64,000 nt of DNA from a virus (IMGVR_UViG_3300044628_000090), one strand, 5' to 3'; counted from the stretch's first letter, positions 13,717 through 62,569 are shown. Translations and numbers: made by a program. The notes: generated by a model from the letters alone, not told the origin.

Positions 13717-14844
13717 ATGTCTTGCGAAAGTTGCTATAATGGCTGTGTAGAAATTGTATCTGATCAATGTGTTAGATATACAGGATTCAGCAGTCTTCCT
13801 TTAGGAATACAAACTGGAGATAACCTTCAGACTGTTATTGAAGATTTAATAAGTAAGTTAGGACCTCTTCTTACTGGAAGTGGTGATGCAATTGCTTTAG
13901 CTTCAGGAATTCGTTGTGCTTTAATAAATAGTTTTTTACCTCCTACTTCGCAGCCAAATGCGTGGACATCAGGACAGGTATTTGAAGCATTAACAAAATC
14001 TGTATGTAGTTTACAAACACAAGTTACTGCTGTTGCTGCTGATATAGCTGTATTAAATGCTGATTATACAATTGATTGTCTTACAGGAGTAACTGCTTCT
14101 TCTGACACTCATGCTATTGTCCAAGCAACTATAAATAAACTTTGTGCTACTATAGTTCAACTAACTGCTCTTGAACTTAATGTAGATACAAACTATGTTA
14201 AATTAGCAGACTTAGATGCTTTGATTGCTGCTTACATAGCTAGCACTTCAGGTGGTGGATCTAATCAACAATATTTAAAGATGGTTCCTTATGTAGCCTA
14301 TGAATACTATGGACCAATAACAAACTTTGATGGATCAGGTATTGGTATCCCAGCAAATGGTTTCTTCAAGGTATATTTATGTAATGGTTTAAATGGCACC
14401 CCTGATAAAAGAGGACGTGTTGCTGTAGGAGCTATTCAGCTTGTTCCAGGTGCTCCATTAGATGCTGCAGTGAATCCAGCTAATGCTGGTAATCCAAACT
14501 ATGCTTTATATACCACATCAGGAGCAAACACTGTAACTTTGATTACATCACAAATTCCTGAACATTCACACAGTGCTGTAGCTGTATCTACTTCTGCAGT
14601 TTCTCCAAATCCTCATAGTCATACTGTTTCTTGGCAAAAAGGACAAGCTGATCAAAACGAGCCTGGAGTTTATGGCGAACTTTATGATGCTAGAACACCT
14701 TATAATAGAACAACAACAACATCTACTGTAAGTCTTACTGTTGATGTAAGTACAGGTGTTACAATATCATCTACAGGAAGTGGAGCAGCTCATGCAAACA
14801 TACAACCTGTTATAGCTGCATATTATATTATGTACATTCCTTAA
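13717..14844 (+). CDS. tail fibre protein with C-terminal phage-tail-collar (MdpB-like) domain
   Basis: The C-terminus 'LCNGLNGTPDKRGRVAVG...IPEHSHSA...PHSHTV...GSGAAHANIQPVIAAYYIMYIP' matches the Phage_tail_collar pattern (LPDlRGRv..G ... lP.HtH...H.H ... gg.aHnN.qPy..lnyiI). The N-terminus carries the Cys-rich 'GIQTGDNLQTVIEDL' module shared with 14865 and 53353. Confidence 0.65.
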   Translation: MSCESCYNGCVEIVSDQCVRYTGFSSLPLGIQTGDNLQTVIEDLISKLGPLLTGSGDAIALASGIRCALINSFLPPTSQPNAWTSGQVFEALTKSVCSLQTQVTAVAADIAVLNADYTIDCLTGVTASSDTHAIVQATINKLCATIVQLTALELNVDTNYVKLADLDALIAAYIASTSGGGSNQQYLKMVPYVAYEYYGPITNFDGSGIGIPANGFFKVYLCNGLNGTPDKRGRVAVGAIQLVPGAPLDAAVNPANAGNPNYALYTTSGANTVTLITSQIPEHSHSAVAVSTSAVSPNPHSHTVSWQKGQADQNEPGVYGELYDARTPYNRTTTTSTVSLTVDVSTGVTISSTGSGAAHANIQPVIAAYYIMYIP

Positions 14845-14864
14845 TCTTTTAAACTAACTATAAA

Positions 14865-16928
14865 ATGGCTTGTAATCCTGGCGATCCTTGCTACAACGCA
14901 TACTATCATCCTAATCAAACTTCTGGATGTTCTCCTTGTGAGACAACAGCAGATCATGTTATATATAATGGACCTAACCTACCTAATACAGGAATTCAAA
15001 CTGGAGATAATCTAGACTGTGCTCTATCAAAAATAGATGACACTTTTAGTGAAGGTGTTGTTGGTCTGAATGGTACTTCTGGTACATCTGGCTCTAGTGG
15101 TAACACTGGAACTTCTGGAGTGAATGGTTCTGGAGGTACATCAGGTTCTTCTGGTTCTTCTGGTACTAATGGCTCATCTGGTTCTTCTGGAAAAGATGGA
15201 AGTTCTGGTATATCATCTAATGGTACTAGTGGTACAAATGGTACAGCTGGAAAAGATGGGTCTAGTGGTGTTAATGGTTCTTCTGGTTTGAGTGGTACTG
15301 CTGGAACTAGTGCTTCAAGTGGAACATCTGGTATAGATGGCACTAATGGCACTGATGGTTCTAATGGAACAAGTGCTACTTCTGGTACTTCTGGAACTAG
15401 TGGTCAAGACGCAACTGCAGGAACTAGTGGAGTTGATGCAACTTCAGGTACAGCTGGTACGAGTGCAAGTTCAGGTACGTCTGCATCTAGTGGATTAACT
15501 GGTACTGCTGGCACTGCTGGCACTTCAGCATCTTCTGGAACTGCTGGTAAAGATGGAGATAGATATTTAACAAGTTCTACAACTTCTTTATTAATAGGAA
15601 CAGGATCAAAAAGTTTAATAGTAGGAACAGGACTAGCATATAGTATTGCACAGACAGCTATCATAGTATATGATGGAAGTAATACAATGCAAGGAACTGT
15701 TACCTCTTACAATAGTGGAACAGGTGATATAGTGATTAATGTTACCACTGCAGTGGGTTCAGGAACTTATGCTGTATGGACAGTGAATCTATTTGGTGCA
15801 GCTGGTGGTAATGGTACTTCTGGAATAAATGGTACCTCTGGCACAGCTGGTACATCTGCTTCCTCAGGTACATCTGGAACTACAGGTACATCTGGTACCT
15901 CTGCATCTTCTGGAACTTCTGCATCTTCTGGTACATCTGGAACAAATGGCACCACTGGTACATCTGGAACTAATGGTACTTCTGGAACTAATGGTACATC
16001 AGCTACTAGTGGATTAACAAATGGTACATCAGGTACATCAGGTACCTCAGGTGCTAATGGTGGTGCTGGACCAACTGGTCCAAATGGAACTAGTGGAACT
16101 AGTGGTACCTCAGGCACCTCAGGTGCAAATGGTGGTGCTGGTCCAAATGGAACTAGTGGAACTAGTGGAACATCAGGTGCAAATGGTGGAAATGGTTCTT
16201 CTGGTACTTCTGGTACTTCTGGTGCTAATGGTGGAAATGGTTCTTCTGGAACAAGTGGTACAAGTGGTGCTAATGGTGGAAATGGAAGTAGTGGTACTTC
16301 TGGAGCTAATGGTGGAGTTGGTTCAAGTGGTACTTCAGGATCATCAGTAGCACTTTCTGGAACAACTAATACAATAGGTAAATTTACAAGTGCATCAACT
16401 CTTGGTGATGCTCCTATAACAGATAATGGAACTATAGTTAATTTTAGTAGATATGTATCTATTAATGCTGTTGGTGGCTCAGGACAAAGTCTTGAATGTA
16501 GTGGAGGTGTATATAGTGCTACAGAAGTAAAGAGTAGTGGTCACTTTGTAAATGACGTTGTAGATAAAGGTATATATAACTCAGCATTAGGTTTTTCATT
16601 TTATGCAATTACAGCTACAGGATGGGTATCTAATACAGCCATCTCAGCAACAGCATTTTTTGAGACATCAGATATTAGATATAAAAATGTATTAGAATAT
16701 AATCCTCAAATAGATTTATTAGGAATAGACGTAATTAAGTTTGTAAGAACTGACGATGACACAAATAAAGTTAGATATGGTTATTCTGCTCAACAAGTAC
16801 AATCAATACTTCCAGATGCTGTTGTAGGAGAAGATAAACTATCTGTAAACTATATGGATGTACATACATTAAAGATAGCAGCATTAGAAAAACGTATTGC
16901 AGAACTTGAAGCTAAATTAAACAAATAA
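14865..16928 (+). CDS. collagen-like (Gly-X-Y, Ser/Thr-rich) tail fibre with C-terminal peptidase-S74 intramolecular chaperone domain
   Basis: Two long (G-T/S-S)n triplet tracts are separated by a ~75-aa globular insert (YDGSNTMQGTVTSYNSGTGDIVINV...GSGTYAVWTVNL). The C-terminus 'TSDIRYKNVLEYNP...YGYSAQQVQSILPDAV...LSVNYMDVHTLKIAALEKRIAELEAKL' fits the S74 pattern (SDxRxK...GfIAQEV..vlPe.V...vdY..L.plL.eAiKeL). The N-terminus has the Cys-rich GIQTGDNL module. Confidence 0.65.
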   Translation: MACNPGDPCYNAYYHPNQTSGCSPCETTADHVIYNGPNLPNTGIQTGDNLDCALSKIDDTFSEGVVGLNGTSGTSGSSGNTGTSGVNGSGGTSGSSGSSGTNGSSGSSGKDGSSGISSNGTSGTNGTAGKDGSSGVNGSSGLSGTAGTSASSGTSGIDGTNGTDGSNGTSATSGTSGTSGQDATAGTSGVDATSGTAGTSASSGTSASSGLTGTAGTAGTSASSGTAGKDGDRYLTSSTTSLLIGTGSKSLIVGTGLAYSIAQTAIIVYDGSNTMQGTVTSYNSGTGDIVINVTTAVGSGTYAVWTVNLFGAAGGNGTSGINGTSGTAGTSASSGTSGTTGTSGTSASSGTSASSGTSGTNGTTGTSGTNGTSGTNGTSATSGLTNGTSGTSGTSGANGGAGPTGPNGTSGTSGTSGTSGANGGAGPNGTSGTSGTSGANGGNGSSGTSGTSGANGGNGSSGTSGTSGANGGNGSSGTSGANGGVGSSGTSGSSVALSGTTNTIGKFTSASTLGDAPITDNGTIVNFSRYVSINAVGGSGQSLECSGGVYSATEVKSSGHFVNDVVDKGIYNSALGFSFYAITATGWVSNTAISATAFFETSDIRYKNVLEYNPQIDLLGIDVIKFVRTDDDTNKVRYGYSAQQVQSILPDAVVGEDKLSVNYMDVHTLKIAALEKRIAELEAKLNK
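15064..15560 (+). repeat. collagen-like GGT-NNN-NNN codon triplet repeat tract 1 of gene 14865
   Basis: Uninterrupted Gly every third codon ([19 protein letters not shown]...). It generates spurious antisense and out-of-frame ORFs. Confidence 0.8.
15796..16345 (+). repeat. collagen-like triplet repeat tract 2 of gene 14865
   Basis: (G-T/S/A/N-S/G)n, including internally duplicated [15 protein letters not shown] units. Confidence 0.8.
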
Positions 16929-48169: not shown

Positions 48170-51100
48170 TGAGTTGTCAAACAGGTATAAAAACTGCAGT
48201 TGAGAAATATGTACAGAACAAGCCTTACTTGAACTTTGATGGTAAGGACTTTATAGAAGTGAGGACATCTCCTAGAGAGAAAGTTAATCCTGAAAACTAC
48301 TATGGAGTATCACGTTCTGTGGCAGACACTCTTAACAAAGCAATCAATTCTGAAATTGCCCTAGGGAAAGTATTCTATCCCAAAGCATATTCAGATAAGA
48401 TAGGAGTTATTATTGCTCCTACAGTGAAGCAGTTGGATGCTTTGAATGCAAAAGATGCAGCTGAGCTTGACCAAGCTTTGGCTGAATTAGATCTTGAGAT
48501 ACCTGAGGCTAATAGACTAGATCTTGAGAATGACACTACGTTTGGTGTCAACTCTGATGGAGATAGTATTTTATTACAAACAGGAGAGATACCTGCTTCT
48601 AAAGCAGCCCCTCAAACTGTAAGTCTTGTTAAAGATCTTTTAAATAGAATAGGTGTAGATATTAAAACACTACAAGCCATAGAGATAGATGGTATTAAGC
48701 AAGATGTAAATGGTGTTGCTGACATCATGCAAAAGCTTGTAAAGGTAACTCAAGGTAAAGAAGATGTAGCTCTTACAGAAGAAGCTATGCACTTTGTTGT
48801 AGAAATACTAGAGCAAAAGAACCCTCAGTTATTTAATAGGTTGCTAGGAGAAATCAATAGCTACAAAATGTACTCTGATGTCCTAGCTACATATGGTAAG
48901 TATAAACAATATCAAACTGCTGATGGCAAACCTAACATCAGAAAGTTAAAAGTGGAGGCTATTGGTAAAGTTTTAGCTGAGACTATTATTAAAAAGAATG
49001 AAGGTTCTACAGAGAAGCCTGAGCTATTAGCTAAGGTGGAAGGTTGGTGGAACCAAATAGTTGACTTTATTAAAGGATTATTTGTTAAGTCTGGGTTTGA
49101 TCAAGCAGCTATGATGGTATTAGGTGGTGAAGAAATTGGAACTGTAGATGATATTAGAAATGCTGAAGGTGTGTATTTCCAACAAAACATCAATTCTCAA
49201 CAGGCTATAATTGATAAGCTAAGATTTACTAGTGATCAGATTACAAAAGATGACACTGGTTATTTAATCAATGGTAATAGAATCAAGAGAAGAGTTACTG
49301 ACTTTGTTAAGGATTGGTATAGCACAAGATTTTCTAACAAAGACTTAACTAAGTCTGAGTATGATCAAGCTGTAGATGATCTTAAGAAAGAAAAAGGTAC
49401 AGCAGGACATGCTGATATTGAACACATGCTTAAAAACTATTTTTTAAATGAAGATGGTACATTAAGACCTGAGAATGAAAGACCTGATGATAATGGATAT
49501 GTATCTCAGTTAAATCCTAAGAACAAAGACTTGTACACTATATTAAAGAAAAACATGGCTGCTCGTTTGGAACAATTTAACAAAACAGCTCCTGGTACTA
49601 AGTTTCTTGCTGAGATGACTGTATATGATGCATCACGTGATGTAGCTGGTACTATAGACTTTATTGCTGTTACTCCTGAAGGAAAGGTGAGCATCTTAGA
49701 CTGGAAGTTTATGGACCTTAATGTTCAAAGATATAAAGATGTTCCTTGGTATAAGGTTAGTGGTTGGAGACAACAAATGAAACAATACAAGTCTATTATA
49801 GAAAAGGGATATGGTGTTAAGCCAGAGGACTTTGAACAGACAAGAATGATTCCTATCAGAGCAATCTATTCTGGAGCTATTCCTAAAGAAGGTGTGCTAC
49901 CACAGTTAACAGGTGTTCAGATAGGAAATGTAGATTTAAAGAAAGAAGAACTGGCATATTTATTACCTGTAGGATTAGAAACTGAGAAGACTGGTATTAA
50001 GAAGGTGGATACTTTGATTGAGAAGTTGAATAAGATATATGATACTATATCTTCTAAGAAAGCTACTCCTGAAGAGAAAAGAAATAAGGCTGAGTTGTTA
50101 AACTCATTGTATGAGTCTATTAGACAATTACAAATCAGACAGAACGTTGAGCCTCTTGTTAGACAAGCTAAGTTATTAAATGCTGATGTTCAAAGAGTTA
50201 TAGATACATATAACAATGAGTGGAAAGGTAAGGATGCTGGATCATTCACAGACAAACAAAAGAGTGAACTATCTGACAGAATCCTATCTTATGAAACCTC
50301 TCTAATGGTTTATACATCTTTGGCAACAGACTTAAAGAGTGTGTTTAAAAAAGACATGTCTGAGAAAGATCAAGCACTGTGGCAAGATATCAGAGACACT
50401 GCAGAAAGTGCAAATGAACTTGAAGCAGATCTTGAAGAAGTGAGAAAAGACTTTGCTGAGAACGTTATCGCTAAGGATGCAAACGTTATGGACTATTTAA
50501 AACCTGAGAAGGTTATTAAAGGGTTTAGTAAGTTGTTTAACTCTACGTCTGTAATACAGCTTAAGTCTACTGAGATTTTATATAAGATGGCTAACAGAGC
50601 CTTTGGTCTTGCGTCTATTGAAACGTCAGAACAAGGAAACAAACTTTTAGCTATTAAAGAGAAGTATGATAAGTGGGCTAAGTCTAAAGGACTTACAAAC
50701 AAAAACTACTTTGACATCATCAAGAAGAAGGGCAAGAATGAGTTGATAGATGAATATAGTCCTGAGTTCTACAAAACTTTAAAGAGTAAGATTGCTGAGA
50801 AAGATACACAATGGGTTAGAGATAACATAGACGTGTCTGCTTACAATGAATTCTTAAAAGAACAAAAGGAAAAAGAACTTAAGAGAATAGAAGATAAGAC
50901 TAGATTTGGTGATGAAGAGACTATAAAGAAAGATAAGAAAAGAGAGATTGCTGAAACAAATGCTTTGTATAATACATCAACATCTGATTCTCCTGGTTGG
51001 TTATTGTATGATCTTACTAAGAAGTTTCCTAAGAAAGAAAATTGGCAGTCTGAAGCATGGAAAGAACTTAACAAAGCAGAGAACAAACCTGCCAAAGAAT

Positions 51101-53178
51101 TCTTTGATTATATTAGAGAGAGGAATGAATACTTAGATCAGATTGGTTACATTAACAAAGCTGATGCTAGAGTATTTTTACCTTTCATAAGAAAGAGTCT
51201 TACAGAGAAGATTGTAATGGGTGGTGATTTTAGATTGGGAGAGTCATTCCTAAGAAACATTACTATTACAGAAGGTGACGTTGGCTATGGTCAAATAGAT
51301 CCTATTACTAAAGAGCCAGTATATTCTATTCCTAAATATTTTACTAGAGAAACTGTAGAAGAAGCAAGTGAAGACTTGTTTAGAAACATGACTCTATTAA
51401 ATAGTATGGCTATTCGTTATGAATATCTAAGCAATATTGAAAACCAGTTAAACTTAATTGTAAAGACTGAAGGAAACAAAGAGGCTATCAAGACATCTTA
51501 CTTTGGTAAAACTAAGTACAGACCTGATGGTACACTTGAGACTACATCAGATAACTCTGACAATACTAAGCTTGTAAGAGACATGATGGCAGCTATTGTG
51601 TATGGTCAGAAGTATGTAGAGAGTGAAAACTTTGACCAGCTATTAGGAGGTATAAGTAACTTTGGTAAGAGAGCAAACAAAGTGTTAGGTAGAAAGATAT
51701 TTACAGAAGACTATGATGATGCTCAGATATCTTTGAACAAAACAATCACACAGTTAAATACTGTCTTCCAAATGAAGACGCTAGGATTAAATCCTATCTC
51801 AGCCCTATCAAACTTCTTAGGTGGTAGCTTCCAGAGTTATATCAATGCTGGTAAGTTCTTTACAAAGACAGACTTTGTACGTAATGAGTTTATGATGGCA
51901 GGTAAAATGAATGGTGTAGATTCTAAGAAATATATAGGAGCATTACAATACTTCCAACCTTTAACAGAAAACTATAACAACATCCTTGCTAAAGAATTGT
52001 CTGTTAGTAAGTTTAGCCAAGAAGGAATACAAGACTTCTTAATGATTTTGATGAGAACTGGAGATCAATATGTACAGTCTATCAACTTCTTTAGCTACTT
52101 AGAAAACTCTATTGTAGAAGATGGTAAGGTGTTTAACGTAAGAGAATATCTTAAGAAACAGCCAGAGTTTGCTAATATGTTCACAGGCACAGCTCAAGAA
52201 AGAAATCAATTAAAAGAGAAGTTTGAGACAGAGGTAAAGAGGCTAATTGAGGAGAAAGGATTTTTAAAACTAGCTAAGGTAGAAAATAATGAGCTTGTAG
52301 TGGAAGGTTTGGATAGAAAGTCTGATAGTGTAATTGAACTTAGAAGAAAGGTACAGGCTATCACTAAAGATGCGTTAGGTAACCTATCTGAGGATGACCT
52401 TAGAAAGATTAACTTAAATATATATGGTAAGTCATTCATGGTATTTAAAAACTGGATACCAAGACTTGTGGATGTAAGATTTGGTAACCTGAAATATAAC
52501 TCAGCTACAGAAGCGTATGAGTGGGGTAGAACTAGAAACATGTTCAGACTTCTAACACAAGACTTCATGGGTTCTGTTGATAGCTTAATCAGTTCTATAA
52601 AAGGAGATGACCAAAAGTTTGTCGATCAAATAAAGACACTTTATGAATCAAAAAGATCTGACTATGAGAAAGATACAGGTAAGACTTTAAACATGACAGA
52701 AGGGGAGTTTGTAGAATTAGTAAGTAATAACATACGTAACCAAATGACAGACTTCATGTTCTATCTTGCATTGTCCACATTAATCATAGGAGCTAAAGCT
52801 GCACAGCCAGGAGATGATGATGATAGAGCCACAAAGAATAGATATAAGTATATGCTTAGAGTGATGGATAAGATTAGAGATGAGGTTGCTTATTTCTACA
52901 ATCCAACATCCTTCTTGGGCCTAACCACATCAGGTATCTTCCCAGCAATAAGTTACTTGGAGAATTTCAAGAAGCTATTCCTAAACTTTGGTACAGAGAT
53001 GTACGCTCTAGGTGTAGGAGATGAAGAGTTGGCAAAGAAAACACAAGTGGTTAAATACTTATTAAAAGGATTCCCTATAGCTTCACAAGTAGATGCTGTT
53101 CTGTTGATGTTCTATCCAGATATAGCTAAAGACTTAGGTATGAAAGCACAATCTGAGGCTAAGCCATTTGGTAAATAA
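48169..53178 (+). CDS. giant virion protein (1669 aa)
   Basis: A long ORF following the 3664-aa ORF after a TAATG overlap. It contains a possible PD-(D/E)xK-like segment (TIDFIAVTPEGKVSILDWKF). An intrinsic-terminator-like hairpin follows. Confidence 0.45.
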   Translation: MSCQTGIKTAVEKYVQNKPYLNFDGKDFIEVRTSPREKVNPENYYGVSRSVADTLNKAINSEIALGKVFYPKAYSDKIGVIIAPTVKQLDALNAKDAAELDQALAELDLEIPEANRLDLENDTTFGVNSDGDSILLQTGEIPASKAAPQTVSLVKDLLNRIGVDIKTLQAIEIDGIKQDVNGVADIMQKLVKVTQGKEDVALTEEAMHFVVEILEQKNPQLFNRLLGEINSYKMYSDVLATYGKYKQYQTADGKPNIRKLKVEAIGKVLAETIIKKNEGSTEKPELLAKVEGWWNQIVDFIKGLFVKSGFDQAAMMVLGGEEIGTVDDIRNAEGVYFQQNINSQQAIIDKLRFTSDQITKDDTGYLINGNRIKRRVTDFVKDWYSTRFSNKDLTKSEYDQAVDDLKKEKGTAGHADIEHMLKNYFLNEDGTLRPENERPDDNGYVSQLNPKNKDLYTILKKNMAARLEQFNKTAPGTKFLAEMTVYDASRDVAGTIDFIAVTPEGKVSILDWKFMDLNVQRYKDVPWYKVSGWRQQMKQYKSIIEKGYGVKPEDFEQTRMIPIRAIYSGAIPKEGVLPQLTGVQIGNVDLKKEELAYLLPVGLETEKTGIKKVDTLIEKLNKIYDTISSKKATPEEKRNKAELLNSLYESIRQLQIRQNVEPLVRQAKLLNADVQRVIDTYNNEWKGKDAGSFTDKQKSELSDRILSYETSLMVYTSLATDLKSVFKKDMSEKDQALWQDIRDTAESANELEADLEEVRKDFAENVIAKDANVMDYLKPEKVIKGFSKLFNSTSVIQLKSTEILYKMANRAFGLASIETSEQGNKLLAIKEKYDKWAKSKGLTNKNYFDIIKKKGKNELIDEYSPEFYKTLKSKIAEKDTQWVRDNIDVSAYNEFLKEQKEKELKRIEDKTRFGDEETIKKDKKREIAETNALYNTSTSDSPGWLLYDLTKKFPKKENWQSEAWKELNKAENKPAKEFFDYIRERNEYLDQIGYINKADARVFLPFIRKSLTEKIVMGGDFRLGESFLRNITITEGDVGYGQIDPITKEPVYSIPKYFTRETVEEASEDLFRNMTLLNSMAIRYEYLSNIENQLNLIVKTEGNKEAIKTSYFGKTKYRPDGTLETTSDNSDNTKLVRDMMAAIVYGQKYVESENFDQLLGGISNFGKRANKVLGRKIFTEDYDDAQISLNKTITQLNTVFQMKTLGLNPISALSNFLGGSFQSYINAGKFFTKTDFVRNEFMMAGKMNGVDSKKYIGALQYFQPLTENYNNILAKELSVSKFSQEGIQDFLMILMRTGDQYVQSINFFSYLENSIVEDGKVFNVREYLKKQPEFANMFTGTAQERNQLKEKFETEVKRLIEEKGFLKLAKVENNELVVEGLDRKSDSVIELRRKVQAITKDALGNLSEDDLRKINLNIYGKSFMVFKNWIPRLVDVRFGNLKYNSATEAYEWGRTRNMFRLLTQDFMGSVDSLISSIKGDDQKFVDQIKTLYESKRSDYEKDTGKTLNMTEGEFVELVSNNIRNQMTDFMFYLALSTLIIGAKAAQPGDDDDRATKNRYKYMLRVMDKIRDEVAYFYNPTSFLGLTTSGIFPAISYLENFKKLFLNFGTEMYALGVGDEELAKKTQVVKYLLKGFPIASQVDAVLLMFYPDIAKDLGMKAQSEAKPFGK

Positions 53179-53352: not shown

Positions 53353-56300
53353 ATGAACGTTACTTGCTCAGCACAAACTTGTCCTGTAATATTAGATTCG
53401 ACCTGCGTATTCTATGAAGGTCCTAATCTAATATGCTCTGGTATTAATACCAATGACAATCTTGAAACCATAATTGAAAAACTTAATGATGCCATCTGTG
53501 GCTCAGGACTATATGGTACTTCTGGTACCAGTGGTGCATCTGGTACTAATGGATCTAGTGGTGTCTCTGGGTCTTCTGGTACATCAGGATTAACAGGTTC
53601 TTCTGGTACCTCTGGTAAAACAGGAACATCTGGTACAAATGGTACCTCAGGTTCGTCTGGTAACAATGGTTCATCAGGCACTTCAGGTTCTTCTGGAAGT
53701 TCTGGATCTAGTGGTAAAGCAGGTACTTCTGGTACAGCTGCAACTAGTGGTACTGGTGGCAGTTCTGGTTCATCAGGTAGTTCTGGTACATCAGGATCTT
53801 CAGGTAGCTCAGCTTCTTCAGGTAGTTCAGGTTCTTCTGGTATCTCAGGTGATAGATATGCAACAATATCTAGTAGCACATTTACATTAGGTAGTGCAGG
53901 TTCTATTGTTGTTGGATTAGGCTTAGCTTATACAGCAGCACAGAACGTAATCATAGCATATAATGCAAGCAATCATCAAACCTCTGAGGTTATTTCTTAT
54001 AATGCTTCAACAGGTGTTTTAACCTTTGCAGCTCCTACAGACGTTGTTGGTTCTGGAACATATTCAATATGGACAGTAAACCTAGCTGGAGCAGCAGGTG
54101 GTGATGGATCAAGTGGTACTAGTGGTAGTGCTGGAACCTCAGGTTCAGTTGGTACTTCTGGTTCTTCTGGTACATCAGCTTCTTCTGGTAGCTCTGGTAC
54201 AAATGGTAGCTCTGGAACAGATGGATCTTCTGGAACATCTGCAACTGCAGGTACATCAGGAAGTTCTGGTAGTTCTGGTAGTTCTGCAACAGCAGGAACC
54301 TCTGGTTCTACTGGTACATCAGGTTCTGCTGGAACAAGTGGTACAACAGGTACAACTGGAACGAGTGGTACAACTGGAACAAGTGGAAGCAGTGGTACAT
54401 CAGCATCTTCTGGTACTGTAGGAACTAGTGGAACATCTGGTAAAGATGGTTCTACTGGAGCAGCAATTGCTAACTGGTATGGTCAATGGCATTCAGCAAC
54501 TACACAACAAGTTCTTGCTGCAGACACACCAACAGTTTGGTCTTATACTTTTACAGACATAGCATATGGTATTACATTAGTTTCAGGTACAAGACTTGAA
54601 GTGGCATACCCTGGACAATATGAGTTTGCTTTCTCAGCACAAGTTGATAAACAAACTCCTGGTTTAGCTACAGTATTTATTTGGTTAAGAGTAAATGGTG
54701 TAGATGAACCTAATAGTAAATCTTCTTTAGAATTGAATGGTCAAGAAGAAGAACAACTTCCATACGTAGGATATTTCTTAGATTTAGTAGCAGGTGATTA
54801 TGTTGAATGGGTATTTGCTTCTTCTGATGCAACAGTTAGACTTAAGGCTGTCCCAGCAACAGCAACTCCTGCTAATCCATATAATTCTCCTTTTGCTCCA
54901 TCAGTTATTGTTTATGCTAAACAAATTGGTGTAGCAGTGAGTGGTACTTCAGGTACCAATGGTACATCAGGAAGTTCTGGTACAAGTGCTGCAGATGGTA
55001 CAGCAGGTACGTCTGCTTCTTCTGGATCTTCTGGAACTTCAGCTACTGCTGGAACAGATGGGTCTAGTGGAACTGATGGCTCTTCTGGTACTTCTGGATC
55101 AAGTGGAACTTCAGCATCTTCTGGATCAAGTGGCACATCAGCTACTGCTGGTACATCAGGTACAACTGGTACTGATGGAAGCTCAGGAACTGATGGTTCT
55201 AGTGGTACGTCTGGTTCTAGTGGTACATCAGGTTCATCTGCAACATCAGGTTCTTCTGGAACTGATGGTAGCTCAGGAACAGCTGGTACAGATGGAAGTA
55301 GTGGTACAGATGGAAGCAGTGGTACGTCTGGCACTGATGGCTCAAGTGGTACTTCAGCAAGCTCAGGTACATCAGCAACAGCTGGTACTTCAGGTTCTTC
55401 AGGAACAACAGGCACCTCAGGTACAACTGGTACTTCTGGTACAACAGGTACAGATGGGTCTAGTGGTACTGATGGATCTAGTGGAACAGATGGTAGCTCA
55501 GGTACAAGTGGCACTACAGGTACAAGTGGTACAAGTGCAACAAGTGGATCTAGTGGATCTTCTGGAACAGATGGTTCATCTGGCACAGATGGTTCTTCAG
55601 GTACTAGTGGTACAGATGGTTCATCTGGAACAAGTGGAACAAATGGTACTGATGGTTCATCAGGCACTGCTGGAACAAGTGGAACAAATGGTACTGATGG
55701 TTCTAATGGAACTTCAGGATCAAGTGGTACAAATGGTTCAAGTGGTACAGATGGCTCTTCAGGCACTGATGGAAGTTCTGGTACTTCAGGTACAAGTGCT
55801 TCTGCAGGTACTGCTGGTCTTTCTGGAACAAGTGGATCTAGTGGTACTACAGGTACAGATGGTTCAAGTGGTACTTCAGGTACAACAGGAACTGATGGAA
55901 GCTCTGGTACTTCTGCATCTAGTGGTACTAGTGGAACAAGTGGAAGTTCTGGCACATCTGGTACATCAGGTACTGATGGTAGTTCAGGAACATCAGCTAG
56001 TTCAGGTACAGCAGGTCTTTCTGGAGACTTATACAAAACAACATCTAGTAGTAGTTTAGCAATAGGAATTGGTACAAAAAATCTTACTGTTGGTACAGGA
56101 CTTGCATATACTGTAGGACAGGCTGTAGTTATTGCTTATGATGGAAGTAATAGCATGGGTGGTGATCTTATTTCTTATGATTCTGGTACAGGTGCAATGT
56201 CAGTTAATATCACTGCAACTACTGGTTCTGGTACATACACAGCATGGCAAGTAAACTTAGGTGGTGCTGCTGGAGGTGATGGTACTTCTGGAACCTCAGG

Positions 56301-57129
56301 ATCTAGTGGTACTACTGGTACTAGTGGCACTGATGGATCAAGTGGAACAAGTGGAACTGATGGATCAAGTGGAACTTCTGCTTCTTCAGGCACTTCAGGC
56401 ACCTCTGGTTCTTCAGGAACAAGTGCTACGTCTGGAACATCAGGATCATCTGGTACTTCTGGTTTACAAGGTTTGGATGGTAACTTAGCTAGTTGGAGAA
56501 TATCAAGTTCTACAGATACAAGTACAGATCCAGGCAGTGGTTTCTTTGCTCTTAGCAGTGGCTTGACTTGGGGTACAACTACAACAAGCATTGCTATTGA
56601 CAACATATCTTATGACCCAGCAATTAACTTCTCATCTTACCTTGACTATTTACAACCTAACACAGTACTTAAGATAGTTAAGAATGATGATAAGAATACA
56701 TATAAAATATTATTAATTACAGCAAGAGATCCATTGGAGCCTGGCTTTGAGCAGTTCTCTGTTTCACAGATTGCTTCTGCAGGTCCTGATCCAGATGCTA
56801 GTGATGTATTCTATTTTAACGTTATTGGTGTAAGTGGATCTTCTGGTACTGCTGGAACAAGTGCATCTGCAGGTACAAGTGGACAAGATGCTACATCAGG
56901 AACTGATGGTTCATCTGGTACTAGTGGAACCTCTGGTTCATCTGGAACTAGTGGATCAGCAGGTACAAGTGCATCTTCTGGTACTTCTGCAAGCTCTGGT
57001 TCAAGTGGCACAGCTGGAACATCTGGTTCTTCTGGAACTGCAGCGTCTTCTGGAACTGCAGCAACATCAGGAGAAACATCAGTATACTCAGGAACAAGTG
57101 GAACAACAGAAACCTTACCTCCTGCTTAA
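53353..57129 (+). CDS. large collagen-like fibre protein (1258 aa) with interspersed globular domains including a C1q/TNF-like signature
   Basis: N-terminal Cys-rich 'GINTNDNLETIIEKL' module, then five (G-S/T-S)n tracts. The globular inserts include two copies of the ~75-aa 'YN/DxSxxx...SY(N/D)xxTG...GSGTY..W.VNL' module and a ~160-aa domain containing 'LEVAYPGQYEFAFSAQV', close to the C1q signature (F.....G.Y.F.F). Confidence 0.6.
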   Translation: MNVTCSAQTCPVILDSTCVFYEGPNLICSGINTNDNLETIIEKLNDAICGSGLYGTSGTSGASGTNGSSGVSGSSGTSGLTGSSGTSGKTGTSGTNGTSGSSGNNGSSGTSGSSGSSGSSGKAGTSGTAATSGTGGSSGSSGSSGTSGSSGSSASSGSSGSSGISGDRYATISSSTFTLGSAGSIVVGLGLAYTAAQNVIIAYNASNHQTSEVISYNASTGVLTFAAPTDVVGSGTYSIWTVNLAGAAGGDGSSGTSGSAGTSGSVGTSGSSGTSASSGSSGTNGSSGTDGSSGTSATAGTSGSSGSSGSSATAGTSGSTGTSGSAGTSGTTGTTGTSGTTGTSGSSGTSASSGTVGTSGTSGKDGSTGAAIANWYGQWHSATTQQVLAADTPTVWSYTFTDIAYGITLVSGTRLEVAYPGQYEFAFSAQVDKQTPGLATVFIWLRVNGVDEPNSKSSLELNGQEEEQLPYVGYFLDLVAGDYVEWVFASSDATVRLKAVPATATPANPYNSPFAPSVIVYAKQIGVAVSGTSGTNGTSGSSGTSAADGTAGTSASSGSSGTSATAGTDGSSGTDGSSGTSGSSGTSASSGSSGTSATAGTSGTTGTDGSSGTDGSSGTSGSSGTSGSSATSGSSGTDGSSGTAGTDGSSGTDGSSGTSGTDGSSGTSASSGTSATAGTSGSSGTTGTSGTTGTSGTTGTDGSSGTDGSSGTDGSSGTSGTTGTSGTSATSGSSGSSGTDGSSGTDGSSGTSGTDGSSGTSGTNGTDGSSGTAGTSGTNGTDGSNGTSGSSGTNGSSGTDGSSGTDGSSGTSGTSASAGTAGLSGTSGSSGTTGTDGSSGTSGTTGTDGSSGTSASSGTSGTSGSSGTSGTSGTDGSSGTSASSGTAGLSGDLYKTTSSSSLAIGIGTKNLTVGTGLAYTVGQAVVIAYDGSNSMGGDLISYDSGTGAMSVNITATTGSGTYTAWQVNLGGAAGGDGTSGTSGSSGTTGTSGTDGSSGTSGTDGSSGTSASSGTSGTSGSSGTSATSGTSGSSGTSGLQGLDGNLASWRISSSTDTSTDPGSGFFALSSGLTWGTTTTSIAIDNISYDPAINFSSYLDYLQPNTVLKIVKNDDKNTYKILLITARDPLEPGFEQFSVSQIASAGPDPDASDVFYFNVIGVSGSSGTAGTSASAGTSGQDATSGTDGSSGTSGTSGSSGTSGSAGTSASSGTSASSGSSGTAGTSGSSGTAASSGTAATSGETSVYSGTSGTTETLPPA
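54936..56025 (+). repeat. longest collagen-like triplet repeat tract (~360 triplets) in gene 53353
   Basis: (GGT/GGA-ACN/TCN-NNN)n with many near-identical 9-18-nt subunits ([15 protein letters not shown]...). Prone to slippage and recombination. Confidence 0.8.
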
Positions 57130-57138
57130 TAAATAAAT

Positions 57139-58452
57139 ATGCCTTACAGTAATTTAACTTTTAATATTTCCCTGAATAAAGAGTTCAACACTAATGACTT
57201 TGTCAAAGTGGCTCATGATGGGAATAACTATATCACAGGAAGGGTTGTATCTTACAATCCTTCCACTGGTGCATTGGTTGTTGAACCTTATGAAGTTGTA
57301 GGTAGTGGTACTTACAGCAGCTGGAACGTTTCCTTAACAGGATTCAATGGTTCAGCTGGAACTTCTGGTTCATCTGGTACATCAGGAACAACTGGCACAA
57401 GTGGATCTACAGGTACATCTGGTACAGCAGGTACTGCAGCAACAACAGGAACAGATGGTAGCTCTGCTACTTCTGGTAGTTCTGGTGATGCAGGTTCTTC
57501 TGCAACTAGTGGAGACAGTGGTTCTTCAGGAACTTCAGCCTCTTCTGGTACAGCTGGAACAGCAGGAACAGCAGGATCAGATGGATCTTCTGCAAGTTCA
57601 GGTACAAATGGTACATCAGGAAGTACTGGTTCTTCTGGTACAAGTGGTGGAATAGGTACAAGTGGCAGTTCTGGAAACTCTGGTAGTACTGGAAACTCTG
57701 GTGCTAGTGGTGGAAGTGGAACTTCTGGATCAAATGGAGCAACTGGACCTCAAGGTCCAATAGGTCCCCAAGGACCTCAAGGTGCACAAGGTGGTAAAGG
57801 TCCATCAGGTGTAAATGGTGGTACAGGACCTCAAGGTGGTACAGGCCCAACAGGGGCACCAGGAGGAACAGGTGCAGCAGGTGCACCAGGACCACAAGGT
57901 CCAACTGGCCCTCCAGGACCTCAAGGACCCACTGGTGGTCAAGGTGGTACTGGTCCTACAGGTGGTGCAACATCGTATAATCAAAACTTAAATACTAATG
58001 GTAGTGTTGTATTTGGTAATTGTGCGATGCCTGCCAATGCTAATACTAGTAGTAGATTGTATGTTGGAAACTTTGGTAGACTAGTGTCATCTGCAAATCA
58101 AGGAGTTCCTTGGACAGGATATAATGATGGTTGGTATACAGTTGGTGCTTTAGGAGCAGCGTTTTTCTTTAATACATCTTCTAGAACAGCAAAAGAAAAT
58201 ATAATACCATTTTCTCCATCAGCAGTAGAAATATTGAATGAAGTAGATATAGTTTCATATAACTATGAAGTAGACCAAAATGATGAAGATACAAGAATAG
58301 GGTTCATAGCAGAAGATACTCCAACTATTTTATCTGGTAATAATAATGATAGAATGGACACAATTAGTGTTATTGGATTAGCTTTGAAATCCATTCAAGA
58401 AATAGATAAAAGAATAACCAACCTAGAAAATATAAAGAATAATGCCATCTAA
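57139..58452 (+). CDS. collagen-like tail fibre paralog with N-terminal anchor module and C-terminal S74 chaperone domain
   Basis: N-terminus '[40 protein letters not shown]', then (G-T/S-S)n, then Pro-containing [13 protein letters not shown]...[13 protein letters not shown], then a ~70-aa tip, then '[32 protein letters not shown]...[13 protein letters not shown]...[21 protein letters not shown]' (S74 pattern). Confidence 0.6.
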
Positions 58453-59725
58453 TATGACCTTTAACATAAATCCTGGACTAGCATATCTCCCTGGAGATAA
58501 TGTACAACTTAGCCATGATGTTAATAACTATGTCATTGGTACTGTTGTATCATATAATCAAGGTACAGGAGTATTAGTAATTGCTCCAACTTTATCAAGA
58601 GGTACTGGTACATTTAGTACATGGACTGTTAGTTTAACTGGTGTTGTAGGTTCCTCAGGTACAGCAGGATCTGCTGGCTCTTCTGGAAAAGCTGGAAAGA
58701 GTGGAAGCTCTGGTAAAGATGGAGCTCCTGGTCAATCTGGTAGTTCTGGTAAAGCTGGTAGTTCTGGATCTGCTGGTACTGCTGCTACATCAGGCACTGC
58801 AGGTACTACAGGAACTGCAGGTACACATGGTCAAGCAGGTTCTTCTGGAAAGGGAGGAGAAAATGGTAAATCAGGAAACAGTGGTAAGTCTGGTTCTTCT
58901 GGAGCTGCTGCATCTAGTGGTAACTCAGGTGGGTCTGGAAACAGTGGTAAGTCTGGGTCTAGTGGAAATAGTGGAACAGCAGGTTCTAGTGGTAAATCAG
59001 GAGCAAGTGGTTCTTCAGGATCAAGTGGTAAATCAGGAGCAAATGGAGCAACTGGACCACAGGGTGCACAGGGTCCAATAGGAGCACAAGGTCCTACAGG
59101 TGCTGGTGGAACAAGTGGTGCACAAGGTCCTACTGGTGCACCAGGTCCAACAGGGGCACAAGGTCCAAGAGGTCCACAAGGTGGCACTGGTCCTCAAGGG
59201 GGTGGTGGTCCACAAGGTCCAACAGGACCAACAGGTGCAACAGGACCTACAGGTCCTCCAGGAGGAACAGGTCCACAAACTGTTTACAATCAATTATTGA
59301 ACACAGATAGTAATGTTTCATTTGCTACTACAGGTAGTGCAGGAGAAGTATTTACTGGTTCAGATTTTAATGTTGCACCTGGAACTGGTATGGTTTCTGG
59401 AGGTAACCAAGGTATTGGATGGTTAGGTACTGGTAATTGGCAAACATTTGGAGCTTGCGGTTCTACAAACTTTTTCAGTACTTCTTCTAAAATATATAAA
59501 AAAAATATTCAACCATATTCTCCTTCTGCTGTAAAAATTATAAATGATGTTAACATTGTTTCTTTTAATTATATAGATTATGAGCATACTAAAGTTGGAT
59601 TTATTGCAGAAGATACTCCAGTTGAACTATCAACAGAAAAACAGGATAGCTTAGATACAATGAACTCACTTGGACTAATATTAAAAGGGTTACAAGAATT
59701 AAATAGTAGAATAGATAAATTATAA
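58442..59725 (+). CDS. collagen-like tail fibre paralog (same architecture)
   Basis: N-terminus '[36 protein letters not shown]', G-X-Y tracts with [16 protein letters not shown], and a C-terminus '[31 protein letters not shown]...[13 protein letters not shown]...[18 protein letters not shown]'. Confidence 0.6.
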
Positions 59726-59735
59726 AATAATTAAA

Positions 59736-60098
59736 ATGATAGTTAATTACACATTTAAAATTTCAAGTTGGCATTTAATCCCACATATAAATGGGTTAGA
59801 CAATGTTATACAAAGAGTAGATTGGGTTATTGTTGGAGAAACAATAGATGCCAATGGTAAAACTCATACATGGGACCATACTCAGACAACAACTATTAAA
59901 TTTGATGATACTGCTGATTTTATTTCAGCTAATGAGTTAACTCCTGAAGTTGTTCAATCTTGGGTTTTTGAAATTGAAAATAGGAAACAAAGAAACATTG
60001 ATTGGATTAAAGAAAACATTATTTATAAAAGACTTGATGAGAAAGTAAATCCAGCAATTGCAAAAATTGTAAAACCTTTTTGGGAGCAACAACAATAA
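59736..60098 (+). CDS. hypothetical protein
   Basis: A 120-aa ORF between fibre paralogs. No motif. Confidence 0.35.
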   Translation: MIVNYTFKISSWHLIPHINGLDNVIQRVDWVIVGETIDANGKTHTWDHTQTTTIKFDDTADFISANELTPEVVQSWVFEIENRKQRNIDWIKENIIYKRLDEKVNPAIAKIVKPFWEQQQ

Positions 60099-60105
60099 AT
60101 AAACT

Positions 60106-60732
60106 ATGCCATACTCTAATATGACATTCACTGTCACCACAGGTTTAGCTTTTGTAGTTAATGACTTTGTTCTAATATCTGCTGTTGATACAACTACAAC
60201 CACTACAACATCGCCTATTGTAGATTGTGTTGAGTTTGTAAACATTGAGGTAACAGGAGCAGGTAATGTAACTTATTTAGATTGTAATGGAAATCCACAA
60301 TTACAAAATGTAGGAATAGGACCAGAAGTAATTGGAACATCATTATATTGTGTTCAATGGAGTACATTAAGTGGAACTGCAACGTTTACTATTGATAGTC
60401 TTGGTCCTAGTTGTACACTAACTACAACTACTACAACTACTACAATTAACACAACTACCACCACATCTACAACTACTGTTGCACCTACAACAACTACAAC
60501 AAGTACAACTACTACAGAAGCACCTGTATATTACAATATATTAGATTGTGGAAATAGTTCTACTGCATTCTCAATATTATATGCTGCTGGAACATTTGCA
60601 ACTAGTGAAAGATGTACTGCAGTTGCAAGTGGTTTCCCAACAAGAACAGTAATTATTATTGGTAGCACAACAACATTACCTGGTGGTCCTTTATATACAT
60701 TAACTTCACAAGGCATATTTGGTTGCCCTTAA
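60106..60732 (+). CDS. Thr-rich protein with fibre-family N-terminal motif but no collagen tract
   Basis: Starts MPYSNMTFTV, matching [10 protein letters not shown] of the ORF at 57139 and MPSNMTFNI of the ORF at 58442. It has long poly-Thr runs (TTTTTTTTINTTTTTSTTTVAPTTTTTSTTTTEAP). Confidence 0.4.
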   Translation: MPYSNMTFTVTTGLAFVVNDFVLISAVDTTTTTTTSPIVDCVEFVNIEVTGAGNVTYLDCNGNPQLQNVGIGPEVIGTSLYCVQWSTLSGTATFTIDSLGPSCTLTTTTTTTTINTTTTTSTTTVAPTTTTTSTTTTEAPVYYNILDCGNSSTAFSILYAAGTFATSERCTAVASGFPTRTVIIIGSTTTLPGGPLYTLTSQGIFGCP

Positions 60733-60751
60733 TTGTTAAAATAAAAAAATT

Positions 60752-61966
60752 ATGTCTGATAATTATATAATTGGTAGAGTTGTATCTTATAATCCCACAA
60801 CTGGAGAACTAGTAGTTACTCCTTATGATGTAAAAGGGTCTGGTACATACAGTGATTGGATTGTGTCTTTAACAGGATTTAATGGAACTGCTGGTACAGC
60901 AGGTACATCAAGTATTTCAGATTCTTCTGGTACTGCTGGTACATCTGGCACAGCTGCTACAGCTGGTACAGCAGGAGAAAGTGATAGCTCAGGTACTTCT
61001 GGAACAACAGGAACTTCTGGTTCATCAGCTACTTCAGGACAGTCACAACCAACAGGAACAAGTGGTACAGCAGGAACATCTGCAGAAAGTGGAACATCAG
61101 CCACTGCAGGCACAAGTGCAAGCTCTGGTACATCTGCTGAGAGTGGAACTTCAGGTTCTAGTGGAACTTCAGGTAGTTCAGCTACAGCTGGTACATCTGG
61201 TTCTAGTGGCACATCAGGAAGCTCAGCTAGCACAGGAACAGGTGGAACCTCTGGTTCTTCTGGAGTGAGTGGTGTTAATGGAGCTACTGGTCCACAGGGT
61301 GCAGCTGGTGGTACTGGACCAACAGGTGCAACAGGATCATCAGGTGTAAATGGTCCTACAGGTGGTACTGGTCCTGCAGGAGGTACAGGTCCACAAGGCC
61401 CACAAGGATTTCAAGGACCACAAGGTGCAACTGGTCCTGCAGGTGGTCCAGGTGGTACAGGTGCTCCAGGACCTACAGGTCCACAAGGTCCCCAAGGTCC
61501 TACAGGTAGTAATAACCAGAATTTGAATTTATATGTACCAGCAACATTTAATTCAGTTTCAACTGGAGAATGGTATTCAAATACTAGATTTTATTGTAGT
61601 AATAATAGAGGACTCGTTGGACCATCACCAAGATGGACAGGTTATGGACCAGGTTGGTATACTTTTGCTGCTGTAGGCTCAGTATATTTTTTTAATCCTT
61701 CTACAAGAGAGATGAAAACAAATATTCAACCTTTTACAAAATCAGCTTTAGATATTATTGACTCTACAGAAATTGTGTCTTTTAACTACGAATTAGATGG
61801 GTTAGAAGATAATCAAAAAATTGGGTTTATTGCAGAAAATACCCCTGAAGAATTATCTACTAAAGGTCATGATAGAATGGATTATAATTCAACTATGGGT
61901 GTAATCATGAAAGCCATTCAAGAGTTAGATGCTAAATTAAAAATAAAAGAAGAACACTACAAATAA
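60752..61966 (+). CDS. collagen-like tail fibre paralog with S74 chaperone domain
   Basis: N-terminus '[40 protein letters not shown]', G-X-Y tracts including [40 protein letters not shown], and a C-terminus 'PSTREMKTNIQPFTKSALDIIDSTEIVSFNYE...KIGFIAENTPEEL...MGVIMKAIQELDAKL'. Confidence 0.6.
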   Translation: MSDNYIIGRVVSYNPTTGELVVTPYDVKGSGTYSDWIVSLTGFNGTAGTAGTSSISDSSGTAGTSGTAATAGTAGESDSSGTSGTTGTSGSSATSGQSQPTGTSGTAGTSAESGTSATAGTSASSGTSAESGTSGSSGTSGSSATAGTSGSSGTSGSSASTGTGGTSGSSGVSGVNGATGPQGAAGGTGPTGATGSSGVNGPTGGTGPAGGTGPQGPQGFQGPQGATGPAGGPGGTGAPGPTGPQGPQGPTGSNNQNLNLYVPATFNSVSTGEWYSNTRFYCSNNRGLVGPSPRWTGYGPGWYTFAAVGSVYFFNPSTREMKTNIQPFTKSALDIIDSTEIVSFNYELDGLEDNQKIGFIAENTPEELSTKGHDRMDYNSTMGVIMKAIQELDAKLKIKEEHYK

Positions 61967-61981
61967 CTACTTGTAGTGTTC
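61952..61981. terminator. bidirectional hairpin terminator between convergent genes
   Basis: GAACACTACAA-ataactac-TTGTAGTGTTC is a perfect 11-bp stem. The stop codons of both convergent genes (TAA at 61964-61966 on +, CTA at 61967-61969 on -) lie inside the loop. Confidence 0.65.
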
Positions 61982-62569
61982 TCCTCCTACCCATAATACA
62001 AAAGATCTTCTAATACCTTTTGTAACAGGTGTCACTCTATGCATCATATATGATGGAAAGATAAACACCAATCCTTTATCTCTTTGCACCTTTAATGCAT
62101 TATTAGGATCTCCTCCTATAAAATATTCAAGATCACCACCTTCGTACTCTGAAGGATCTGATAACTGAACTGTTACAGATATTTTTCTGGTAGATAACAT
62201 ACCTGGCCCAAAGTCTTGGTGCCATCCATAATGCCCATTCTCAGTGGCATGATACTCTGTATATTGTACAGCGTCTAATACTCCAGTCAAATTAAAATTC
62301 CAAAGAGCATCATTTGCTTCTATTATCATTCCCATTAACTTATCGTACAACCACTCCCATTGTTGGGAAGGATGTATCCATTTGATTTGAGAAGATCTAA
62401 CTGTAAGATCATTGTATTCATTAGAAGATCCTGTTTCTCCTGCTTTGAATGGAAGAAATGCAACGTCTGCATATATTTTATCTAGCTCTTCGTTAGAAAA
62501 ACCTTCTTTAAAATAATAGTAGTTTTGAATATCTACTAACTTAGGGGGAAATATTATTGCGTTTTTCAT
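61967..62569 (-). CDS. 2OG-Fe(II) oxygenase, prolyl 4-hydroxylase (P4Hc/PKHD) type
   Basis: Fe-binding 'YGWHQDF' (HxD); 'RKISVTVQLSDPSEYEGGDLEY'; a distal His and 2OG-binding Arg/Ser in 'LVFIFPSYMMHRVTPVTKGIRRSFVLW'. Matches the 2OG-FeII_Oxy_3 pattern (HxD...H...RxS). Confidence 0.7.
   Translation of the reverse strand: MKNAIIFPPKLVDIQNYYYFKEGFSNEELDKIYADVAFLPFKAGETGSSNEYNDLTVRSSQIKWIHPSQQWEWLYDKLMGMIIEANDALWNFNLTGVLDAVQYTEYHATENGHYGWHQDFGPGMLSTRKISVTVQLSDPSEYEGGDLEYFIGGDPNNALKVQRDKGLVFIFPSYMMHRVTPVTKGIRRSFVLWVGGEHYK

Follow-up and report, generated by a model that had tools for sequence, protein, structure and literature searches.

The window analysed here, a stretch of 64,000 nucleotides (nt) of IMGVR_UViG_3300044628_000090 with coordinates counted from its first letter, contains a cluster of three collagen-like genes starting at 57139, 58442 and 60752, referred to below as fibres A, B and C. 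The source is an uncultured phage of approximately 105-118 kb with a crAss-like and N4-like gene plan. The three open reading frames (ORFs) were present as a preliminary description of this DNA had given them. The plan proposed there, an N-terminal module (N-module) followed by a collagen-like stalk, a small tip and a C-terminal Peptidase_S74 (S74) chaperone domain, was borne out by Pfam scores above cut-off and by alignments of the N-modules and the C-terminal regions (Table 1). The Pfam Collagen family (PF01391) matched fibres A, B and C with E values of 1e-16 to 3e-24 and 60-85 bits compared to a cut-off of 27.2 bits, and Peptidase_S74 (PF13884) matched them with 34.7, 27.9 and 31.7 bits, respectively, compared to a gathering cut-off of 22 bits. 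All three were above cut-off for both families. The start of the fibre B gene overlaps the end of the fibre A gene by 11 nt. Automatic gene callers in public assemblies place the fibre B start at 58454 (423 amino acids, aa), but the start at 58442 (MPSNMTF) was favoured because the MP(Y)SN start is conserved in paralogues, orthologues and the metagenome protein P0007.

Table 1. Fibre genes of the window and the features discussed with them.
Feature	Position	Strand	Length (aa)	Description
Tail-fibre-like protein	13717..14844	+	375	Type-A Cys-rich N-terminus; no collagen tract
Long fibre 14865	14865..16928	+	687	Type-A Cys-rich N-terminus; collagen tracts; one internal N-module, aa 231-311 (15555-15797); tip of ~107 aa; S74-like from Ser602 (16668)
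BNR/Asp-box repeat protein	16928-18598		556	Directly after long fibre 14865
Protein with poly-Thr linker	18619-19242		207	Follows the BNR/Asp-box repeat gene
Giant protein	22786-27870		1694	
Giant protein	37175-48169		3664	
Giant protein	48169-53178		1669	
Long fibre 53353 ("beads on a collagen string")	53353..57129	+	1258	Type-A Cys-rich N-terminus; 255 in-register triplets; two internal N-modules, aa 166-246 (53848-54090) and aa 891-971 (56023-56265); two further globular inserts
Fibre A	57139..58452	+	437	N-module aa 1-68 (57139-57342); stalk aa 68-277 (57340-57969); tip aa 278-346 (57970-58176); S74 from Ser347 (58177) to end
Fibre B	58442..59725	+	427	N-module aa 1-67; stalk aa 67-279 (58640-59278); tip aa 280-347; S74 from Ser348 (59483)
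DUF7936 protein	59736..60098	+	120	Flanked by fibres B and C in all related cassettes examined
ORF 60106	60106..60732	+	208	First ~28 aa are N-module strands 2-3 (MPYSNMTFTVTTGLAFVVNDFVLISAVD); then poly-Thr linkers and two small Cys-bounded domains
Fibre C	60752..61966	+	404	Half N-module aa 1-42 (strands 4-6); stalk aa 42-254 (60875-61513); tip aa 255-316; S74 from Ser317 (61700)
2OG-FeII_Oxy_3	61967-62569	-		Convergent to the fibre cluster
2OG-FeII_Oxy_5/TIGR02466	62575-63276	-		62575-63222 according to gene callers
Aah/TibC-type O-heptosyltransferase (TIGR04414)	63228 onwards	-		Runs past the window end at 64000

The last approximately 160 aa of the three short fibres were 44-48% identical in pairwise comparisons, and each contains a Ser-x4-Lys dyad (Ser347/Lys352 in fibre A, Ser348/Lys353 in fibre B and Ser317/Lys322 in fibre C), as does long fibre 14865 (Ser602/Lys607). 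When the C-domain profile was compared with the PDB, matches were found to the GP4 tail fibre (8jov, E 4.7e-6), to S16 gp37 (6f45, E 2e-5) and, weakly, to MYRF (7dc3, E 0.45). The SxxxxK motif of the window fibres aligned with SASDERLK of 8jov and SSDRRIK of 6f45, and weakly with 7dc3, in agreement with the S74 chaperone pattern proposed previously. If cleavage occurs at the conserved Ser, 79-90 aa would be split off, and the remaining fibres would end in tips of 62-69 aa. Searches of Pfam and the PDB with the tip gave no match, and neither did a PDB search with a single tip+S74 sequence.

The N-module had been described as approximately 40 aa long. Its real length was found to be approximately 68 aa when N-terminal and 81 aa when internal, 40 aa being just the portion kept by fibre C. 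The six copies in the window align with 15 invariant columns and comprise two intact N-terminal copies (fibres A and B), one split copy (ORF 60106 and fibre C) and three internal copies, one in long fibre 14865 and two in long fibre 53353, where the module had been correctly described as an internal insert. AlphaFold2 (AF2) predicted a six-stranded beta-barrel with a predicted local distance difference test (pLDDT) score of 88.8. The N-module matched no Pfam family. In an exhaustive HMMER search it was found in 7,201 cluster representatives (2,367 at E <=1e-10), with up to 12 copies per protein, and each of the nine top matches scanned had a Pfam Collagen match as well, above cut-off in six cases. 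In BFVD the fold was present in many collagen proteins of "uncultured Caudovirales phage", with a template modelling (TM) score above 0.9 for the eleven best, and in fold comparison it resembled N-terminal domains of tail fibres and tailspikes. A tblastn search of the phage database with the N-module returned only two records, both of a 735-kb uncultured megaphage (LR756501.1, 107766-107945; 45% identity over 58 aa), indicating that the barrel also exists outside the phage group of the window.

From its position and its fold resemblance, an anchor role for the N-module is a reasonable reading. Because the module also occurs internally and in multiple copies, it is at the same time a general bead in collagen stalks. 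In the window there are three N-terminal copies (one of them split) and three internal ones. Docking of the short fibres onto the internal modules of the long fibres was considered and, finding no support, set aside. In the relatives L086 and L101 the module occurs internally, while none of their fibres begins with it.

The stalks of fibres A, B and C contain 70, 71 and 71 triplets in a single register, with Gly at the first position in 93%, 97% and 83% of them, respectively, and mostly Ala in the remainder; in fibre C, 12 of the 71 triplets lack Gly. The three stalks are colinear. A zone of 45-46 Ser/Thr-rich triplets is followed by a conserved G(A/S/V)N-GAT-GPQ junction and then by 24-25 perfect triplets (45 Ser/Thr-rich and 25 Pro/Gln/Thr triplets in fibre A). 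In the distal zone, Pro occupies the X position in approximately half of the triplets and Gln or Thr the Y position, as is usual in bacterial and viral collagens (PMC3368898), and unbroken runs of 31-41 triplets are present at the distal stalk ends. Pro is absent from the proximal 45 triplets, charged residues are scarce there, and Gly is missing from 4-27% of these triplets. All non-Gly first positions, in which Gly is replaced by Ala, Ser or Asp, were confined to the first 40 triplets, within the proximal zone.

On one reading of this composition, the Ser/Thr-rich part that makes up the proximal two-thirds of the stalk does not form a stable triple helix unaided. It would serve as a flexible spacer, or would form a helix that O-glycosylation by the adjacent glycosyltransferases stabilises, and the classical collagen structure would be confined to the distal 24-25 triplets. 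The fibre cluster is adjoined by a modification island that includes two 2OG oxygenases and a protein O-heptosyltransferase. The fragment of the latter in the window scored 197.3 bits compared to a TIGR04414 cut-off of 200, and the full-length gene of the same phage (assembly L127) scored 247.5 bits. The island continues in L127 (11862-20627) with DUF6445, two GT1 genes, a second GT9 gene, a methyltransferase-like ORF and a sulfotransferase. The poly-Thr linkers of ORF 60106 and of the 18619 product are also plausible targets of O-glycosylation. Glycosylated Thr stabilises the Pro-poor cuticle collagen of Riftia, and the GPT repeats of BclA are O-glycosylated. On the other hand, the strict register kept over 45 triplets would be needless in a mere linker. 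The island is linked to the fibres by adjacency only, and it also lies beside different fibre sets, for example in the relative L081. The 2OG enzymes match generic PKHD/TIGR02466 families below cut-off, and their matches are not to collagen prolyl hydroxylases. Judged by its location, the island possibly acts on the fibres, and a proximal zone that is helical only when glycosylated, or not at all, is regarded as a tentative and somewhat doubtful alternative. In L081, the N-termini of ORFs resemble by eye APS kinase and nucleotidyltransferase.

The triplet repeats had been called near-identical, which holds for the protein. The DNA repeats are degenerate, mostly with 62-81% matches in Tandem Repeats Finder. 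The further proposal that the repeats give built-in length variability was not supported when tract lengths were compared among assemblies and relatives. Six independent assemblies of the window phage (L127-L132) were 99.77-99.97% identical in the fibre region, a comparison spanning 8,614 nt in four of the six and 5,946 and 2,781 nt in the remaining two, and no gap was found. Related loci were gathered with the C-terminal part of the 1669-aa protein and with an alignment of the S74 domains; DUF7936, when used as an anchor for this purpose, gave no confirmed match. The same cassette, in the order A, B, DUF7936, C, was found in three lineages (the window phage with L135/L141; L136-L140 with L143; and L084, L085 and L122). 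Fibres A, B and C are positional orthologues between lineages, and in each of them the end of gene A overlaps the start of gene B by 1-14 nt. The number of stalk triplets was equal within a genome and different between lineages (70/71/71 in the window, and about 62/62/62 and 44/44/44), and the index of the proximal/distal junction was likewise matched within each genome. These matched lengths in three lineages indicate that stalk length is constrained and not freely variable.

A slippage-prone contingency tract that produces fibre length variants within populations would fit the repetitive triplets, and it would fit the 14865 homologues, which range from 535 to 1542 aa among relatives with at least 96% identical capsid protein. 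Such a tract is nevertheless very improbable here, given the degenerate DNA repeats, the gap-free fibre region in six assemblies and the equal stalk lengths of three diverged paralogues. The fibre genes of more distant relatives differ by swaps of whole modules and not by a drifting triplet count.

Equal triplet counts and zone boundaries would be obligatory if A, B and C were the three chains of one ABC heterotrimeric, C1q-like fibre. The ordered and ancient trio with its positional orthology across lineages, the A-B gene overlap in all of them, and the stalk lengths and junction indices that match within but not between genomes are all consistent with this. In addition, the Lys-rich stalk B carries a net charge of +9 in the window and +7 in L141, compared to -3/-5 in the window and -2/-4 in L141 for the mildly acidic stalks A/C, so that the charges nearly cancel. 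However, charge complementarity was absent from the other lineages, and equal length may just as well be due to a common geometric reach. In the window phage and L141, no position has a non-Gly triplet in more than one chain (P about 0.05-0.07), but this avoidance fails in L136 and L085; being suggestive in two related genomes and absent in others, it was rejected as a heterotrimer signature and not counted as evidence. To our knowledge, all characterised S74-bearing fibres are homotrimers, and the podophage GP4, with three distinct fibre types, provides a precedent for several homotrimers in one phage. A single ABC heterotrimer is thus considered unlikely, and three homotrimers are the best reading of the trio.

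The N-module that had been assigned to fibre C is present only as a truncated half, the remainder being carried by ORF 60106. Fibre C starts at strand 4 of the module, so that the split falls at the turn between strands 3 and 4. An intact orthologue of the split module was found in the syntenic contig L126/P0008 and in L141, and alignment with L126 revealed an insertion of approximately 570 nt (60189-60757), which encodes the poly-Thr linkers and the Cys-bounded domains and supplies a stop codon of its own as well as a new ATG. In fibre A of L084, L085 and L122, the module is split in the same way and at the identical hairpin. Variants of the 60106 protein (P0177-P0188) swap or drop the Cys domains yet retain the half-module, and the Cys domains are shuffled among these variants and also fused to other N-terminal adaptors resembling the N-termini of the 16928 and 18619 products. 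Readthrough or frameshifting that would join ORF 60106 to fibre C was rejected in favour of a cassette insertion, as the frames differ and a stop codon and 19 nt lie between the two. From these comparisons, the split looks like a maintained arrangement and not like damage, and we hypothesise that the barrel of fibre C is completed in trans by the 60106 hairpin. An extended version of the heterotrimer appears improbable as a whole. In this version, a heterotrimeric S74 chaperone would nucleate one ABC fibre, phage-encoded O-glycosylation would stabilise its Ser/Thr-rich helix, and the hairpin of the 60106 protein would complete one barrel in trans, with the result that the base of the fibre gains poly-Thr/Cys adhesin domains.

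Long fibre 14865 had been said to share the architecture of the short fibres. This was correct for its collagen tracts, with matches to Pfam Collagen, its tip and its S74-like motif (FFETSDIRYK, of canonical form). Its N-module, however, is internal only, its N-terminus is a different, Cys-rich module, and its Peptidase_S74 score was 17.9 bits, under the cut-off of 22. It scored 112 bits against a profile of the four S74 domains of the window, a partly circular value since the profile includes its own domain. Long fibre 53353 has no S74 domain at its C-terminus, and Pfam and PDB searches with its two globular inserts (approximately aa 372-530 and 1046-1158) found no match; by eye, the second insert resembles the domain that replaces the N-module in the L011 homologue of 14865. 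The Cys-rich module of approximately 50 aa (C..C...V.Y.G..L..GI.T.D.L) is common to 13717-13870, 14865-15040 and 53353-53500. In the relatives L081, L082 and L085, the fibre gene that comes first after that of the 1669-aa protein carries it, whatever the distal domains, and it is probably the primary virion-docking segment.

Taken together, fibres A, B and C are probably three paralogous trimeric collagen-like virion fibres, most likely tail fibres. By analogy with its family, the C-terminal S74 domain would gather three chains and fold the small tip. The perfect Pro/Gln/Thr zone of 24-25 triplets beside the tip would then zip into a triple helix, which would spread into the longer, imperfect Ser/Thr-rich zone. 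The chaperone is predicted from its motif to cleave itself at Ser347, Ser348 or Ser317, using the Lys at +5, and would leave the tip of 62-69 aa as the distal, receptor-facing end. The predicted six-stranded barrel may serve as a proximal knob, connecting the fibre with the particle or with a different fibre protein. The three genes are ancient positional orthologues that have been kept in the order A, B, DUF7936, C with equal stalk lengths within a genome, and the 14865 and 53353 products are longer fibres with a Cys-rich N-terminal anchor and the barrel as internal beads. The DUF7936 protein is, at a guess, an assembly factor or adaptor.

Several points weigh against this interpretation. The AF2 model of tip+S74 had a pLDDT of 42.5, too low for use, and its sole predicted feature was a long C-terminal helix. 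The Ser/Thr-rich zone is of uncertain triple-helix state: it lacks Pro, is poor in charges and, in fibre C, has as many as 27% of its triplets without Gly. Fibre C also has only half of its anchor module. The N-module, in turn, is not solely an anchor, as its internal and repeated occurrence within single proteins indicates, and hhalign found no sequence relation of the N-modules to the N-termini of GP4 gp76 or crAss001 gp22. For docking of the PhicrAss001 gp22 type, in which N-terminal residues 1-26 lie in the tail hub, the hhalign probability was 0.2-0.3% for both types of N-terminal module. Finally, PhicrAss001 carries head fibres, both trimeric and dimeric, whose short N-terminal segments dock in pockets of the hexons (PMC10172136).

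The last point bears on the location of the fibres, since a tail location is not established when crAss-type phages also have head fibres. Head (capsid) or decoration fibres would agree with the PhicrAss001 precedent and with the position of the cluster, which lies far from the tail-fibre-like block at 13717-18598 and downstream of the giant internal-protein genes. Most of the "tail fiber" matches in PHROG, moreover, stem from collagen composition. In contrast, the tail-fibre families phrog_17524 and phrog_5555 also match the C-terminal non-collagen part, and the nearest cultured relatives of the tip+S74 part are Bacillus phage proteins that carry a tail annotation. An S74 domain is a typical feature of tail fibres and tail spikes, and the fold of the N-module is like that of N-terminal domains of tail fibres and tailspikes. 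A head location is therefore judged rather unlikely, and trimeric tail fibres remain the preferred interpretation.

The window as a whole is a single strand-biased block of phage genes that includes the terminase (1456), the portal (3498), the major capsid protein (8052) and three giant proteins. The 3664-aa and 1669-aa proteins, the two scanned, had no Pfam match. The 1669-aa protein matched weakly the crAss-like phages cr108_1 and cr111_1, the partner in cr111_1 being annotated as "putative RNA-polymerase subunit", and the giant proteins presumably belong to the ejected internal proteins or to the virion RNA polymerase proteins. The 556-aa BNR/Asp-box protein is likely a beta-propeller, and this protein and the 207-aa protein that follows it are probably additional host-binding components. 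Across 54-58 kb the GC content climbs to 44%, owing to the GGN-NNN-NNN periodicity. Long ORFs inside the collagen genes (53412-53879, 54912-56036, 56175-56606 and 60823-61233 on the minus strand, and also out-of-frame ORFs on the same strand) were rejected as genes; they are Pro/Glu/Val-rich or Leu/Val/Gln-rich shadow ORFs that arise from the same periodicity of the repeats.

No match was found when the fibre region and the gene of the 1669-aa protein were searched by megablast against 50,697 phage records, and the capsid protein had a sole match, to Leptolyngbya phage Lbo-JY46, with 26% identity. Judged from these searches, the window phage is without a close cultured relative. In IMG/VR, more than 600 stretches encode a relative of its capsid protein, and the best 80 are all at least 96% identical.

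The window fibres share with S74-chaperone fibres and spikes (K1F endosialidase, T5 pb1, S16 gp37 and GP4 gp76) a C-terminal domain of approximately 80-90 aa with Ser-x4-Lys, and among these S16 gp37 and GP4 gp76 were aligned with the window C-domains. The GP4 gp76 protein of Ralstonia phage GP4 (439 aa) is similar in size to the short fibres but has no collagen stalk, and the N-domains are not alike in sequence. The stalk of the window fibres is of collagen-like type and not a beta-helix or coiled coil, and cleavage of the window fibres is predicted. The dumbbell plan of N-globule, collagen stalk and C-globule is held in common with the EPclA-D side-tail-fibre proteins of E. coli O157:H7 prophages (PMC3368898) and with PHROG 5073, 6320 and 8745, and the distal zone resembles EPclA-D and other phage collagens in having Pro at X and Gln or Thr at Y. 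The EPcl proteins, however, have PfN, PCoil and PfC domains and charged GPK/GER triplets, whereas two-thirds of the window stalk is made of uncharged G-[TS]-[SAND] triplets with Gly-to-Ala changes, and its ends are an unannotated barrel and S74.

Pro-poor, Thr-rich Gly-X-Y tracts are also found in Bacillus BclA and in Thr-rich bacterial collagen-like proteins, and O-glycosylation of the window fibres is possible by adjacency. The NCBIfam Scl1/Scl2/Lcl scores of the window fibres were 63-74 bits compared to cut-offs of 325-500, and the short fibres differ from proteins of the BclA type in having no LPXTG, no C1q-like C-terminal domain and a viral context. C1q A, B and C are, like the window trio, encoded by three adjacent paralogous genes with equal collagen lengths and homologous C-terminal globular domains. 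The end domains of the window trio are different, there are no conserved interchain cysteines, and co-assembly would be by analogy. A collagen-like, S74-capped fibre is an established phage design; its unusual features here include the equal stalks in three genes and the split of one anchor domain.

The core result is mainly a sound annotation of an abundant uncultured environmental phage. Beyond this, a compact barrel that punctuates collagen stalks in thousands of environmental phage proteins has no curated family and could be defined as one. The three-gene cassette, with stalks that are equal within and unequal between lineages, offers a tractable case of fibre-length constraint or of heterotrimer assembly. 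The island of heptosyltransferase and oxygenase genes points to post-translational modification of a Pro-poor viral collagen, which is testable by mass spectrometry. The barrel that is split at one hairpin in two lineages could be a natural domain complementation for attaching new adhesin modules.

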